A stretch of DNA of 64,000 bases from an uncultured Flavobacteriaceae bacterium. Lineage in GTDB: Bacteria; Bacteroidota; Bacteroidia; Flavobacteriales; Flavobacteriaceae. Below are positions 11,027 through 17,781 of this stretch, in pieces; the first letter of the stretch is position 1; each line of letters begins with the position of its first letter. A program made the translations under genes and the position numbers. The stretch is taken from positions 36,984-100,983 of the forward strand of contig CAXAZF010000009.1 in the NCBI GenBank assembly GCA_963973455.1, read 5' to 3'. The notes under the pieces were generated by a model that made no database searches, was not told the origin of the DNA, and saw only the letters and a program-made list of their open reading frames with translations.

Positions 11027-11545
11027 TTAAAGGGTTTTAAATCGTTTTATAATAGTGTTTAAAAGCCATTCGTCCAGATCATCCATCAAGGTTTCACTAT
11101 GGCCTATAAATTGTCGTTGTGGTATCACTACCGTAAATTGGTTTTTTTTGGTCAATGCCATGCCTTTCCATTTTCCTTGGCCGGTGGCTTTGTACATATA
11201 CCAAAAGTACTTGCGGCTTTTTTCAGTAATACGAATGTTGAGCGTACCGCCGTTGTTATGGATATCGGCATACTCAGCATCGCTAAAAAAGGTTATTTTG
11301 CTCTTACCGTCATCTTCCACATCCAAGCTGTTGAGCAAATGCGAGCTTTTAACCAGTATTTTACGTCCGGGGTCAATATCACCTTTTCGGTTTTCCCACT
11401 TTTCAAACCCTTTATCGGTAAACCCTTGATTGTAAAAACTATCTTGAAAAAAGTTTAACCCGGTCACACGCGCATAGCGAATGGCATCCTTTTTAAGGGT
11501 GCGTGCCATTTGTAAAAAATCGGGGTTCTTTTCAATTTTACTCAT
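11027..11545 (-). CDS. phage virion morphogenesis protein (Mu gpG-like)
   Basis: 'RKILVKSSHLLNS','YADIHNNGG','IPQRQFIG' motifs. Confidence 0.8.
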   Translation of the reverse strand: MSKIEKNPDFLQMARTLKKDAIRYARVTGLNFFQDSFYNQGFTDKGFEKWENRKGDIDPGRKILVKSSHLLNSLDVEDDGKSKITFFSDAEYADIHNNGGTLNIRITEKSRKYFWYMYKATGQGKWKGMALTKKNQFTVVIPQRQFIGHSETLMDDLDEWLLNTIIKRFKTL

Positions 11546-12275
11546 CGTCCGGGCGTTTCAGTTTTTTTAGTTTATCCAGTTCCTTTTTTGGAATGGCGAA
11601 ATACGGATGATCTTCTTCATTAAACACCTTGCCGGTTTTGCCTACGTGGTTATCAAAGCCTTTATCAATTTTAACTTTTGGCGTTCCCTTGGTTGCCTTT
11701 TTAGAAGTCTGCTGCACCGAGCAACGGCACCGGAACCCATTAGGTGGGTAATGCGTATCCCAAAATTTGTCGTTTAGCGGTTTAATGATACCGTCCAGTT
11801 TGTCATGTTCATCGCGCACACGCTCATCGCCTACGGTTCTATACATAAGGTTGGGAAATAAATCGCTGTCTTTTTCAAACTTTTGCCATTGCTTGGCCGC
11901 TTGCGAGCTTCGTCTGGCGGTTTGATATTCTGCCTGAAGATAGTTTTGATTGTACGTTTTATGAACCGCTAACACCTTTCTACGGAAGTCTGTCCACTTG
12001 CGTATTTTACCATCATCGTCAACCAACAGCTCGTTAAACTCCACCAATTGCTGATAGCTTTTAGCGGCACTAAACAAGTATAAGTTATTTTGAATTTCAG
12101 TAACGAGAAGGTCACCGTCTTTATTCAGTTTATCCCATTCTTTGCCATAGCCTTTTTTCGCCCCTTTTTGAAGCTCTTCATAGGTTTTTAATAGCAACTC
12201 TTTGTCAAGGTCTTTTGGCTTGAGCTTTTTATCGAACAATGCCCTGGCAATTCGGGTGATCAATTTATCCCACAC
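11538..12275 (-). CDS. head morphogenesis protein (Mu gpF/SPP1 gp7 family); frame open upstream to 12371
   Basis: 'YRTVGDERVRDEH..LDGII.P..D.FWDTHYPPNGFRCRCSV' hallmark. Confidence 0.85.
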   Translation of the reverse strand: MWDKLITRIARALFDKKLKPKDLDKELLLKTYEELQKGAKKGYGKEWDKLNKDGDLLVTEIQNNLYLFSAAKSYQQLVEFNELLVDDDGKIRKWTDFRRKVLAVHKTYNQNYLQAEYQTARRSSQAAKQWQKFEKDSDLFPNLMYRTVGDERVRDEHDKLDGIIKPLNDKFWDTHYPPNGFRCRCSVQQTSKKATKGTPKVKIDKGFDNHVGKTGKVFNEEDHPYFAIPKKELDKLKKLKRPDDE

Positions 12276-12340
12276 CGAGAGATCAATCGCCTGCGGTGGT
12301 TCGTGTTCGTGGCCACAGCCTTCGTGGTTGTAAAATGCGG

Positions 12341-13684
12341 CTATTTTAAGGGCGTTGTTGGGCTTTTTTTTTTACTGTTGCCTTTGTCGTCCTCTTCCGT
12401 AGGATTGTTTGAAAATGGGCGGTTATATCCGGTAATGGTAATACCACTACGTTGGCTCAGCTCGTCCACGTCCAATTCAAAACCTGCAGTAGCTAATTTA
12501 ACTGCGCTTTCCACGTACTCTTTTTGATCAAGTTCGTCACTCTCATCCCAATCAAACTGAAGGTTTGCCAACGGCGTGTAAAAACTTGAAATTTTAGGAA
12601 GCCTTGGCAATAGCTCTTTATTGATAATGTACTTTACAAAAAGCTTATCGCTTTCGTGGCGATCGTCTGCCACTTCGGCCATAACTTTTAAGCTGCCATA
12701 CGTACCGGCATTTTCTTTATTTTGAGTGGTACCATCTTGCCCCAGTACACGTTTGGATATTTCAGAATTTAGTAAATCCAGAAACTCCTTAAATACCCGG
12801 AAGGCATCCGTTTGCGGAACCGCACCCAAAGTAAACTCTTCATTGCCTTGCAGCACCATGACGTGGTTGCTATGCATTGCCAATCCCATTTCGAGTAACT
12901 CCTCTTGGCGGCCGGTCGTCATATTATCGGTATTGATAATAATAGGCGGTACACCAAACTTATGCAAGTGATCGAGCCAAGCACCCATTGCTTGCTTTTT
13001 GGCAAGGATATAGGTTGCTATTTGGCTTAAAATACCAAGGTCGCCATTGTTGCCAATCTCAATGTAATAGTTGGCAAGGTTACCAGATACATACGAGGTT
13101 CCTTTTTCGCCACCGGCTTCTTCAGCAATCTCTTGGCGGTGTGGTAAAATATGCGCCATTGGCATTGGCGTGCATTCCATTAATTCGCCATTCTCATCGG
13201 TATCAAAAAGCTCCAGTACTTTAATGCCGGTAAACTTGCTCATTACCGTTTGGTATAAAAAGGTTTCAAACCACGGTTGCTCGAGTAAGTTTTTTACATC
13301 GGGATTGGTATCGCCGCTTTCGGTCACTAAATCCCATTTACTGCGTACTACACGTAAAATACGGCTTTCCATCACACTCATAAAGTGCGCATCGAGCATT
13401 AAGTTTTCGTACAATTCTGATAAAAATAGTAAGCTTGGCCGTTCGGGGTCGGTCGCTAACGAAACGGCATCGTTCCAATCTTTGATCTCTTTGGGTACAA
13501 AGAAAGTATTCGACTTTTTAACCTTTCCGGAAAGTGATTTTTTACCACCTCTGGATGAGTCGCGTGAAACCATTTCCACCCGAAGCCTATCCTCCGGTAT
13601 GCCTTTCAGCACTCGATTTGAAATAGAGCTGTTTGCAATGGCAATTGCAGCTGTTTGTTTTCGTATCCAATTTCCTAATCCCAT
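12341..13684 (-). CDS. portal protein (DUF935/Mu gp29)
   Basis: Size, position after gp36-like gene, 'HKFGVPP','EISKRVLGQ','GTYGSLKV'. Confidence 0.85.
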   Translation of the reverse strand: MGLGNWIRKQTAAIAIANSSISNRVLKGIPEDRLRVEMVSRDSSRGGKKSLSGKVKKSNTFFVPKEIKDWNDAVSLATDPERPSLLFLSELYENLMLDAHFMSVMESRILRVVRSKWDLVTESGDTNPDVKNLLEQPWFETFLYQTVMSKFTGIKVLELFDTDENGELMECTPMPMAHILPHRQEIAEEAGGEKGTSYVSGNLANYYIEIGNNGDLGILSQIATYILAKKQAMGAWLDHLHKFGVPPIIINTDNMTTGRQEELLEMGLAMHSNHVMVLQGNEEFTLGAVPQTDAFRVFKEFLDLLNSEISKRVLGQDGTTQNKENAGTYGSLKVMAEVADDRHESDKLFVKYIINKELLPRLPKISSFYTPLANLQFDWDESDELDQKEYVESAVKLATAGFELDVDELSQRSGITITGYNRPFSNNPTEEDDKGNSKKKSPTTPLK

Positions 13685-13685
13685 G

Positions 13686-14114
13686 TTATAAATAGTTATT
13701 TGGGTTTTTATTATTTCCGTAAATCACTCTTGGCTTTACTTCGCCCTCTTCATCTTTTCGAGATGGCAACCCGGCATAGGCGTTTCCGCTTTCAAGTTTA
13801 TCCAGTTCTTTAAGTGCCCACTCATAATCGGTGCGGATATCATCGGTTATTTTTCGAGCTGCATTACGCCGTAAAAATTTGTATAAAACTAAGTTCATTA
13901 ATATTTGAAGGATCACTCCATTACGATCGTCATCCTCTTCAGCAAAAACCGTTTCCATATCATACCTTCCGGAAAGCTTTGATGTGATATAATCAATTTG
14001 CCGCTTTTCAATTTTTTCAAGTGTATATGAAGCTCCTGCTGTTGAGTTTGCCTCGAGCAAGCGGCTTTGGATATCCGCTTCAAAATCTTCTTCAGTAAGA
14101 AATATATAGGCCAT
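13686..14114 (-). CDS. head-tail connector (DUF1320/Mu gp36-like)
   Basis: 'SKLSGRYDMETVF','RTDYEWALKELDKLESG' motifs. Confidence 0.75.
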   Translation of the reverse strand: MAYIFLTEEDFEADIQSRLLEANSTAGASYTLEKIEKRQIDYITSKLSGRYDMETVFAEEDDDRNGVILQILMNLVLYKFLRRNAARKITDDIRTDYEWALKELDKLESGNAYAGLPSRKDEEGEVKPRVIYGNNKNPNNYL

Positions 14115-15625
14115 TAGAAATGTGCTTTACGTTTAATTTTTGCTGTTAATGTATTTTTAGGGTTGGATGTATAAATCCAACTGCTTAACCATCGTATGGC
14201 TTGCTCATCGGCATCTGGCGCATCATCGTGCGTTTTATAACCGGGTTCAATACCCAAAAGCTGACTAATACCTTCCTGTGTGCTGTGGTGGCTTCGTTTG
14301 GCTTCGTTGTAATAGATACGCTCGTTTTGATAATACGGCTGCAGGGATAAAATACGATCGTACTTTTTGGTGCGTGGAGTATCCACTTTTACCAAATTGA
14401 GGTGAATGCGATACGCATCTTGCACATCGCGAATGGTGCGTTCCACTTCATCATTCCAAAATTGTGCTTCAAACTTCCAATGGATGATTACCGTTTCCGG
14501 TAACGAAAGTTGAAACTCGGCCATCCAGTTTAAGGCTTCACGCATTTTGCTTTGGCGCACAAAGCTATCGATGTAATAAAACTCTTTACCATGCAATCCC
14601 CACACCCGTACCGCATTAAAATCGGCTGTGGACGTTCCTGCATAGGCAACATCCCAAAAACCAGTGATTGCTTTAAAGTGATTGAGCGGCGGTAGTTTTT
14701 TCCATTGGATATCCTCATTTTTGAAAATAACACCCTCTGTATGAGGTTCGTTATTATATTCTGCTTTTGCCGCTAAAATTCCAATATCATCAACTACTTC
14801 TTTATAATAATCATTAGAATACTTTTCAATCCAAGTAGGTTTATAATCTACCGGATTAAATGCCTTTACTTCGTGAACCTTCCAGTTTGGATGAGATTTC
14901 TGAAGCATCGTCATAATCATGTCGGGTTCAAAACGATTGTTAGCATATACAAACCTTCTTGGATATCCATCCATTGTAGGAATCAAATCACGTTCAATCC
15001 ATTTTGCATATTTTCTTTGTCGCTTTGGATTAGCACTAACTTCTTTAGTCTCTAAATCATCAACCACAATATAGTCTGGTCTTTGATTTTGTTTCCTTAA
15101 ACCTCTAACTGATTGCCCAACCCCTTGAGCTTTTCCAATAAAACCACTTTTGGTTTTCCAATCACCAGACTCCCAATTACCGGGATTCATTTGTTCACCA
15201 AAATCGTTAATGATGCGTTGGTTCGCTTCAAATTCGGCACGAAGATCTTCTAAAAGTTCTGAAGCACGGTCTTTACTTGTAGTGCAAATAACAAAATAAT
15301 TTGCATCATCATTAATCGAAAGCCAAAACGGGATAATGATATCTGCCCAAACGGATTTCGCCAATCCACGACCCCATTGAAAAAAGACTCTTGCAAGTTG
15401 ATCATTCTTAATCAAATTTGCGCCTTTAATATGAAAATCATTTGCTGGACTCGTGCAATAATGAGGGAAGTAATACTCCGCACAAAAGCGTGGGTCATTC
15501 TTAGCTTTGGTAATACGTTGCTTTTTATCCGCTTCGGTTTCATAGGTATTTACACCTCCACCGGAACGGGCAAACTGCAGCCGTTTTTTATATGCCTCTA
15601 AGGCTTTTTTGTCTGCAGCTTTCAT
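14114..15625 (-). CDS. terminase large subunit
   Basis: 'WGRGLAKS' Walker A variant, 'RPDYIVVDDLE' Walker B, 'FWDVAYAG','HDDAPDA' nuclease motifs. Confidence 0.9.
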   Translation of the reverse strand: MKAADKKALEAYKKRLQFARSGGGVNTYETEADKKQRITKAKNDPRFCAEYYFPHYCTSPANDFHIKGANLIKNDQLARVFFQWGRGLAKSVWADIIIPFWLSINDDANYFVICTTSKDRASELLEDLRAEFEANQRIINDFGEQMNPGNWESGDWKTKSGFIGKAQGVGQSVRGLRKQNQRPDYIVVDDLETKEVSANPKRQRKYAKWIERDLIPTMDGYPRRFVYANNRFEPDMIMTMLQKSHPNWKVHEVKAFNPVDYKPTWIEKYSNDYYKEVVDDIGILAAKAEYNNEPHTEGVIFKNEDIQWKKLPPLNHFKAITGFWDVAYAGTSTADFNAVRVWGLHGKEFYYIDSFVRQSKMREALNWMAEFQLSLPETVIIHWKFEAQFWNDEVERTIRDVQDAYRIHLNLVKVDTPRTKKYDRILSLQPYYQNERIYYNEAKRSHHSTQEGISQLLGIEPGYKTHDDAPDADEQAIRWLSSWIYTSNPKNTLTAKIKRKAHF

Positions 15626-16602: not shown

Positions 16603-17781
16603 ATGGTTAAAACCTTATTAGAATTACAAGCTACCAGAGACTACGGCTCTTTACTCATTACAGCTGAAGTAAAGAACAAAGTGGCTTATTTATCTATTGA
16701 AGGATATATACACCCGTGGGCGGACGCTTCATCCAAAAACTTAAAAAATGAAATAAAAAAACTTAAAAGCGAAGGTGCTACAGAAGCTGAATTGTATTTA
16801 AACACTGAAGGCGGTGTTTGTTTTCAAGCCAATGAAATGGTTAACATTTTAAAGGAAAACTTCGGAAACAATATCCCATTAAAAATAGGTGCTTTAGCAG
16901 CCAGTTCCGGAAGCTTTATCGTTGCTGTTTTTAACAAGACAGCTTCAGCGTATAAAAATTCCAAGTTTATGGTACATAAACCGCAAGGTGGTTTTAGAGG
17001 TACCGCAGCTCAAGTAAAAAAGTCGCTTAAATCCCTTCAAGATTTAGAAGATGATTATAAAAGAGAATATGCTCGAGCTTTCAATAAAACTGAAGATGAG
17101 ATTGAAGAAATGTGGAAAGATGGTGATCACTGGATGACCGCAGATGAAGCTTTAGAGGAAGGACTTATCTCTTCCATTATTGAAGAAGAAGCCGAAATAA
17201 CTCCTGCAGCACATTTACAATTAGTAGCTGCCGGCGCACCCGGAGTAACTAAAGAACCGGAACCAACCCCGGAACCAAAAAAGAAAAATCAAAACTCAAA
17301 TACAACCACTATGGACAAAAAAGTGTTGGCAGTAAAATTAGGACTGCCGGAAGATGCTACTGAAGCGCAAATTAATGCCGCTTTAGACAAGCAAAGAGAG
17401 CAGGCAAATACTGCCGCCACGCTCCAAGCCAAATTAGATGGCCAATCAAAAGAAGCCAAAGAAGCAAAAATTAAGGCTCTACTTGATAAAGGAGAAAAAG
17501 AGAAGAAATTCACTGGTGATATGCGCGCGCACTATCAAGCATTTGCAGAGGCAAATTACGAAGGTGCTGAAAAAGCCATTGAAGCTTTAGAGCCGGTGGC
17601 TAAAATCGACACCAAAAAAGACCCAAAGAATCCGGGCGGTGAAAGCACAAAGGATGCTCTTGAAAGCTACCAAGCTTATTTGGATGCTGAAAATGGTGAT
17701 GCACTTTGGGCAACTCTTGAAGAAGAGAATCCAGAATTAGCTGAAAAACTAATCACGGCACATTACAACAAAGAAAATTAA
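16603..17781 (+). CDS. ClpP-like (S14) prohead protease with C-terminal scaffold domain
   Basis: 'LYLNTEGG','ALAASSGS','FMVHKP','WMTADEALEEGL'; Pro-rich linker then MDKKVLAVKLGL scaffold. Confidence 0.85.
   Translation: MVKTLLELQATRDYGSLLITAEVKNKVAYLSIEGYIHPWADASSKNLKNEIKKLKSEGATEAELYLNTEGGVCFQANEMVNILKENFGNNIPLKIGALAASSGSFIVAVFNKTASAYKNSKFMVHKPQGGFRGTAAQVKKSLKSLQDLEDDYKREYARAFNKTEDEIEEMWKDGDHWMTADEALEEGLISSIIEEEAEITPAAHLQLVAAGAPGVTKEPEPTPEPKKKNQNSNTTTMDKKVLAVKLGLPEDATEAQINAALDKQREQANTAATLQAKLDGQSKEAKEAKIKALLDKGEKEKKFTGDMRAHYQAFAEANYEGAEKAIEALEPVAKIDTKKDPKNPGGESTKDALESYQAYLDAENGDALWATLEEENPELAEKLITAHYNKEN

Follow-up and report, generated by a model that had tools for sequence, protein, structure and literature searches.

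This analysis concerns the junction between two head genes of a Mu-like prophage in a Flavobacteriaceae genome, those for the portal and for the MuF minor head protein, which follow one another on the minus strand of the 64-kb window examined (by which we mean the whole stretch of 64,000 nucleotides taken from contig CAXAZF010000009.1). The Mu-type portal gene (positions 12341-13684, minus strand) is an open reading frame (ORF) of 447 codons, taken here as the zero frame, whose product ends in ...GNS KKK SPTTPLK*. It matches phrog_113 (portal) and the family PF06074 Portal_Mu (DUF935), the latter at 4.9e-59 and 200.8 bits (gathering cut-off 23.9), over positions 2-336 of the 336 in the profile and residues 90-415 of the protein. 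The second gene encodes a minor head protein of the MuF (Mu gpF / SPP1 gp7) family; in the version given by the ORF caller it occupies positions 11538-12275 of the minus strand, with a GTG start and 245 residues, and it matches PF04233 Phage_Mu_F (1e-16, 62.1 bits; gathering cut-off 29.6) as well as phrog_220, 'minor head protein and DNA pilot'. A single profile, phrog_35074, spans both proteins, with the portal at its positions 24-312 and MuF at 476-670.

Read on the minus strand, the 3' end of the portal gene is AGT AAA AAA AAA AGC CCA ACA ACG CCC TTA AAA TAG, and it contains a run of ten adenines (A10; T10 on the plus strand) at positions 12364-12373, 22 residues beyond the end of the portal Pfam match at residue 415. 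This is the sole A/T run of at least 9 in the window. Base composition would predict about 42 A/T runs of length 10 or above in the entire 2.93-Mb genome, which has only 10, so that this one is more than a product of chance. After the run, the zero frame continues only through the tail of the plain portal, SPTTPLK plus TAG (12341-12363), the stop codon itself being at 12343-12341. The -1 frame is closed just 5' of the run by a TAA (12372-12374), an arrangement (T-AA) found in many relatives, and is then open through the 32 codons of the start-less stretch KKKPNNALKIAAFYNHEGCGHEHEPPQAIDLS (12276-12371, comprising a linker and the conserved MuF N-terminus) straight into the PF04233 ORF that ends at 11538; the first ATG, GTG or TTG of this frame is the GTG at 12275. 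The third (+1) frame, which would be entered with one A fewer or two more, is closed by a TAA that we read at 12346-12348, 15 nt past the run, and would specify another short-tailed portal, KKK AQQRP*. The zero frame also holds an A_AAA_AAA heptamer, within AGT AAA AAA AAA AGC. The layout described in the original prediction, with T10 at 12364-12373, a -1 TAA at the start of the run, a frame open into the gpF-like gene and GTG 12275 as its first start, is therefore all present in the sequence.

Several observations indicate that the stretch upstream of the GTG is real MuF coding sequence under purifying selection. A protein search with the 277-residue MuF frame yielded 132 homologues, whose N-terminal regions align with AAFYNHEGCGHEHEPPQAIDLSVW, and the syntenic contigs of the closest relatives (69-77% identity) likewise have A10, MuF at -1, a frame open from the run and a called start further downstream. 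When 34 junctions (our own and 33 others) were aligned, conservation was found to start directly after KKK, following the pattern x-V-x-A ... I-x-A-[FY]-Y ... C-G-H ... A-[IVL]-D-L-S-x-W. From the run as far as the AIDLS motif, differences at the three codon positions number 403/349/582, and the ratio of non-synonymous to synonymous substitution rates (dN/dS) in the MuF frame is 0.12-0.41 in seven subclades, an eighth being too saturated for the estimate. Start codons are also scarce here: in 27 of the 34 aligned -1 clusters there is no ATG, GTG or TTG before the conserved motif, and ATG occurs in none of the 34, over a stretch with a median of 31 codons, whereas 34% of windows of the same length taken from within MuF lack a start. 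Taken together, the dN/dS values, the alignment of homologues and the depletion of start codons indicate that the start-less stretch is translated, and not from a start of its own. One element of the original prediction, a His/Cys-rich linker joining the two proteins, has to be revised: the His/Cys motif is part of the N-terminus of MuF and not of a segment made for the joining. In the window this Cys/His cluster (EGCGHEHE, 12300-12325, minus strand) has the CGHxH form, which is seen in some clades; others have CGCxxC, it is absent in L016 and L019, and it may bind metal.

In order to examine how widely the junction is conserved, relatives were gathered through protein searches and IMG/VR. Searching the phage collection at the DNA level with the junction sequence gave no match, a portal pattern scan over the genome contigs gave no relative, and a search of same-genus and near-family genomes gave one relative only. 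In total, 91 loci from IMG/VR, family genomes, assemblies and GenBank were grouped into 57 clusters at about 93% MuF similarity. The run is kept at the junction in 48 of these, as A10 in 46 and as A11 in two. MuF lies at -1 in 33 of the A10 clusters and in both A11 clusters, where the eleventh A arose by substitution; in 11 clusters with A10 the portal and MuF share one frame, and in two MuF lies at +1. The clusters without a run comprise four in-frame fusions and five with separate genes. Relative to the portal frame, the run of these 48 clusters may begin in any codon phase (24/17/7 for the three), and AAA makes up only 72% of the lysine codons elsewhere in these genes, which argues that it is the nucleotide run that is conserved and not the KKK peptide.

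The frames that follow the run are similarly regular. One frame leading on into MuF, with the other two stopping within 0-43 nt, is the rule in 47 of the 48 clusters that have the run, the length of the read-through being 555 nt in the decayed L017 and at least 823 nt in the others. In the 35 clusters with MuF at -1, the zero frame comes to a stop 2-43 nt past the run, and in 34 of them no stop interrupts the -1 frame between the run and MuF; the exception (L071) has stops in its linker and looks damaged. The two +1 cases are less straightforward: L017 was set aside as an example requiring a deletion of one nucleotide, as it has two stops inside MuF, and L027 is intact but a singleton, a search for its close relatives having returned L027 alone. 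The same site, unannotated, is kept by dozens of related Bacteroidota phages. The A-run and the stop-bounded -1 frame are both conserved among related prophages, a check proposed in the original prediction that comes out in its favour. Two further junctions deserve mention. L080 (640-665) has no A10 and reads GGA AAA AAG AAA TAA, with A_AAA_AAG in the portal frame and a start-less MuF at -1, so that the type of signal appears to have been swapped there. In a cluster of 20 near-identical contigs (L035-L064, possibly gut-derived), 19 have an in-frame A10, and in L048 the run is A9 and the gene is split, reflecting either a length variant at the DNA level or an assembly error.

In a maximum-likelihood tree of portal plus MuF (52 rows), the run persists across branches longer than one change per site, and the relation between the two genes switched between in-frame and -1 at least four times on well-supported branches. 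Among the sequences surveyed, lineages that lack the run are either permanently fused or have gained an ATG. Permanent fusion is seen in L022/23/28, the sister clade of this prophage, whose linker (...EIAAYY...LSVW) is homologous to the start-less stretch described above, and a new ATG at the portal stop is seen in L032, where the run is broken to AAAAAACAAAAAAG, and in L065/69. Portal-MuF fusions occur also in the homologues P0122-P0126, in a Pseudotenacibaculum haliotis isolate (an ORF of 843 residues with an in-frame A10 just past the portal domain) and in Porphyromonas gingivalis phages (PP754929), where the fusion is annotated as a 'portal protein' of 853 residues. Natural in-frame fusions, which the original prediction proposed to look for, hence exist in several lineages, the sister clade included. 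In Hankyphage the run is absent and the two genes are separate, with an ATG. A cultured representative of the -1 arrangement is the Winogradskyella phage Peternella_1 (MT732475, L096), which reads GAC CCT AAA AAA AAA AGT ..., with a start-less MuF at -1, and is annotated as two coding sequences with no join. Its gp34 (MT732475, 16841-16940 region) is the portal, despite being named 'head morphogenesis protein' in GenBank, and its gp33 (MuF) has an annotated start about 100 nt past the portal stop, leaving the conserved N-terminus unannotated.

We propose, with a probability that we put at about 55%, that A10 is a programmed slip site common to a large group of Bacteroidota Mu-like phages and prophages, and that slippage of the polymerase is the main route. 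Faithful decoding would give the 447-residue portal with its 7-residue tail. A transcript with one extra A (A11) would be read from ...GNSKKK into KPNNALKIAAFYNHEGCGHEHE... and on through MuF, giving a portal-MuF fusion of about 715 residues; its junction, ...S KKKK PNNALK..., would be the same by the polymerase or the ribosome route, and the predicted junction peptide is ...GNSKKKKPNNALK.... A transcript with one A fewer would encode another short-tailed portal. Because its conserved N-terminus has no start codon, MuF would exist solely as an extension at the C-terminus of some portal chains. The slip would take place mainly in the host RNA polymerase, as reiterative slippage on the T10 template, and a ribosomal -1 shift on A_AAA_AAA may contribute. 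We infer the slippage itself, its rate and its step, as well as a placement of MuF, by way of the fusion, at the portal inside the capsid. The run would act both as a splitter and as a joiner, since it is also kept in relatives where the two genes are in frame. In Escherichia coli reporters, A-runs of 7, 9 and 11 gave 10%, 40% and 63% of shifted product (PMC3711429), which also speaks for the polymerase. With rates of this order a mix of both proteins would be obtained whichever of the two frames the genome has, and the tolerance of both configurations would be accounted for. With regard to the original prediction, recoding at A10 into a portal-gpF fusion is thus supported by the comparison (conservation, selection and natural fusions), while its route is refined towards RNA polymerase slippage over a -1 ribosomal shift.

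The choice between polymerase and ribosome obviously requires some care, because a -1 frameshift of tRNA-Lys on A_AAA_AAA would make the same two products, plain portal and portal-MuF. We consider this alternative possible but rather unlikely. The heptamer is in the zero frame here, and MuF lies at -1 in 35 of the 48 run-bearing clusters, as the ribosomal shift would have it. Nevertheless, RNA polymerase slippage is probably the mechanism, to the extent that sequences can tell, because the length of the run is held near 10 where 7 would suffice for a ribosomal shift, and because the run is kept whichever frame holds MuF, which fits transcripts longer or shorter by one nucleotide: MuF is not consistently at -1 where the run is kept (35 clusters at -1, 11 in frame and two at +1, only one of the latter intact). 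The frame that a -1 shift never uses closes early as well (median 9 nt, as opposed to 27 nt in the out-of-frame background; mean percentile 0.27), although this sign of polymerase slippage is no more than suggestive as clusters share ancestry. Nor is a stimulatory structure apparent, such as is usual, though not obligatory, 5-9 nt past the heptamer of a -1 frameshift site: RNA structure downstream of the run had a mean z of -0.43 over 48 junctions, with only one of the 48 below -2 and no fold shared among them, and in the window z was +0.99, with no Rfam match. Several points nonetheless weigh against the proposal. Every A10 includes an in-frame A_AAA_AAA or A_AAA_AAG, and a ribosomal -1 shift gives the same fusion in 35 clusters; in L080, where MuF is at -1 and the portal frame offers no more than the classic A_AAA_AAG, it is a ribosomal shift that is indicated; of the cases needing a deletion of one nucleotide, the only intact one (L027) is a singleton and the other (L017) is decayed; a shorter, free MuF could arise in addition if translation also began within the gene, at GTG 12275 or a TTG close by; and the common ancestry of the clusters means that counts and p-values overstate their independence.

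One may also consider explanations that involve no recoding. MuF might start at GTG 12275, at a nearby TTG or at a non-canonical ATA or ATT, the run then being incidental or an A-rich leader; gene callers and GenBank do annotate two genes, and an ATA overlaps the portal stop here as ATAG, with an ATA in L003 and an ATT in L005 at the matching position. Yet one would not expect, if this were so, purifying selection in the MuF frame upstream of the GTG, a frame open from the run in 34 of 35 clusters, or a first canonical start that differs in place from relative to relative and often lies deep in the conserved body, and those relatives that lack the run are either fused or equipped with a proper ATG; we regard an independent start as highly improbable. 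The non-canonical start over the portal stop, whose geometry resembles ATGA coupling, was rejected in particular because the isoleucine codon is not conserved in position (L006 has GTA), and because the frame is open and under selection from the run onwards. The MSALY... of the homologues P0014 and P0016 was likewise examined as an independent methionine start and dismissed, as the start of P0016 is a GTG chosen by the gene caller within the start-less linker, past an A10 (L015); we assume that the same holds for P0014. A different possibility is phase variation at the DNA level, in which the run would change length during replication and the population would encode either portal or fusion. 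A10 tracts are unstable in replication, and the A9 of L048 among 19 in-frame A10 loci of its cluster would be an instance of such change. Against this, the assembled consensus is A10 in 46 of 48 clusters, both A11 runs arose by substitution and not by an indel, and the run stayed at 10 through the frame switches on the tree, which must therefore have come from indels elsewhere; moreover, a single virion needs both products, and we think phase variation very unlikely to account for the site. Least probable of all is an assembly homopolymer error (a true A11, and hence a plain fusion gene) or a decaying pseudogene, for while L017 and L071 do look decayed, A10 with MuF at -1 recurs in 33 clusters, whose sources are independent metagenomes, genomes of isolates and a cultured phage, and the MuF ORF of the window is intact.

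A further point for polymerase slippage is the host gene dnaX (DNA polymerase III gamma/tau; NF011531, 727.7 bits), which has an in-frame A10 just past domain III, ...LASLTASGEKKNHSD..., at contig C7:55968-55977, at the tau/gamma boundary. Past this run the -1 frame ends with KKKP, and the +1 frame closes 16 codons on. Four more A10 runs in the genome are in frame within long ORFs (C2:285574, C5:136890, C2:185910 and C5:261961), one of which is CapD-like (...LVTGGAGSIGSEI).

The surrounding genes are those of a Mu-like head operon. The minus strand carries the small and large terminase, the head-tail adaptor, the portal, MuF and the Mu gpG-like neck protein, and the plus strand the protease, the major head protein and the sheath. 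Upstream of the portal in the same operon are the head-tail adaptor (13686-14114, minus strand) and the large terminase (14114-15625, minus strand), both assigned from their ORFs and Pfam/PHROG matches, and relatives share this order of adaptor and terminase upstream of the portal. Downstream of MuF is the gene for the gpG-like neck or tail-completion protein (11027-11545, minus strand; PF05069, phrog_26), whose ATG overlaps the MuF stop at 11538-11545 (GATGAGTAA), an ordinary translational coupling, unlike the start-less MuF. The head maturation protease (16603-17781, plus strand; phrog_2976, 3.4e-37) might cut the portal-MuF linker after assembly.

What would such a site accomplish? Portal C-termini face the capsid interior, and a tether made by slippage would load MuF at the portal in a set ratio; the suggestion of the original prediction, that a fusion fixes the stoichiometry of MuF on the portal ring, remains an inference. 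With such a covalent tether, the presence of a few MuF-family copies at the portal vertex would be accounted for, and they would need no binding step of their own to get there. MuF-family proteins in relatives sometimes carry CdiA_C-like toxin domains; many homologues (P0017, P0021, P0025, P0126 and others) have a C-terminal CdiA_C-like domain (PF18451) and would be MuF-toxin cargo, while the MuF of the window is a short form without it. A broader interpretation, which we offer tentatively and at somewhat less than even odds, is that in a large Bacteroidota Mu-like clade MuF and its toxin-carrying versions are never free: a frame-agnostic A10 'splitter' would exploit slippage of the host polymerase, as dnaX tau/gamma would, to give a fixed ratio of portal to portal-MuF, with the MuF cargo placed at the crown of the portal, in position to exit together with the DNA. 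In practical terms, the annotated starts of hundreds of Bacteroidota phage MuF genes are arbitrary and truncate the protein, and annotation overlooks the predicted portal-MuF product, Peternella_1 included. If the recoding is true, it would provide a widespread case in head genes beside the G/GT paradigm of tail genes, in a phylum that departs from E. coli in both its translation initiation and its RNA polymerase. Because the run is kept in any frame, these phages also offer a natural test of polymerase versus ribosomal slippage, and since Peternella_1 and its host are in culture the proposal is testable. Our search of the published literature found no report of slippage or frameshifting at the portal gene, the MuF gene or their junction, and neither do the papers on the Peternella and P. 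gingivalis phages mention either process at the junction.

Among known systems, the functional rationale for a tether is seen in SPP1, whose gp7, a member of the MuF family, is reportedly bound to the portal gp6. As proposed here, a MuF-family minor head protein is at the portal in few copies per capsid, the difference being that gp7 and gp6 are separate proteins that bind non-covalently. The natural portal-MuF fusions (PP754929, Pseudotenacibaculum haliotis and the profile phrog_35074) have the same order of domains, Portal_Mu and then Phage_Mu_F, but there the fusion is the only product encoded by the genome, in some cases without a run, whereas here it would need a slip. The tail assembly chaperones of the lambda G/GT type, which are said to be made by a -1 frameshift, are similar in that some chains of one protein are extended into the following ORF at a conserved recoding site within a morphogenesis operon, which sets the ratio of the two products. 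Lambda, however, uses a heptamer (of the G_GGA_AAG type) and the ribosome, in tail genes and not in head genes, and its relation is always -1, whereas here the run persists in relatives that are in frame. E. coli dnaX (-1, A_AAA_AAG) has tRNA-Lys slipping on an A-rich heptamer, exactly the one that L080 has at its portal end, but it needs an upstream Shine-Dalgarno-like element and a downstream hairpin, and no structure was found at these junctions. A parallel in design is dnaX of Thermus thermophilus, where tau and gamma are reportedly produced by programmed transcriptional slippage on an A9 run. The same gene is cited as a case of programmed transcriptional realignment (PTR) in PMC3711429. 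In both systems an A-run lies at a domain boundary, the two remaining frames close directly past it, and one gene gives, or here would give, two products of different length, with no need for an RNA structure. They differ in that the genes here are a phage portal and MuF and not a clamp-loader subunit, and in that the long product would, in most of the phage relatives, be the slipped one and not the one encoded in the genome, with slippage here predicted from sequence. The host's own dnaX shares the Thermus design, with an A10 in place of the A9.

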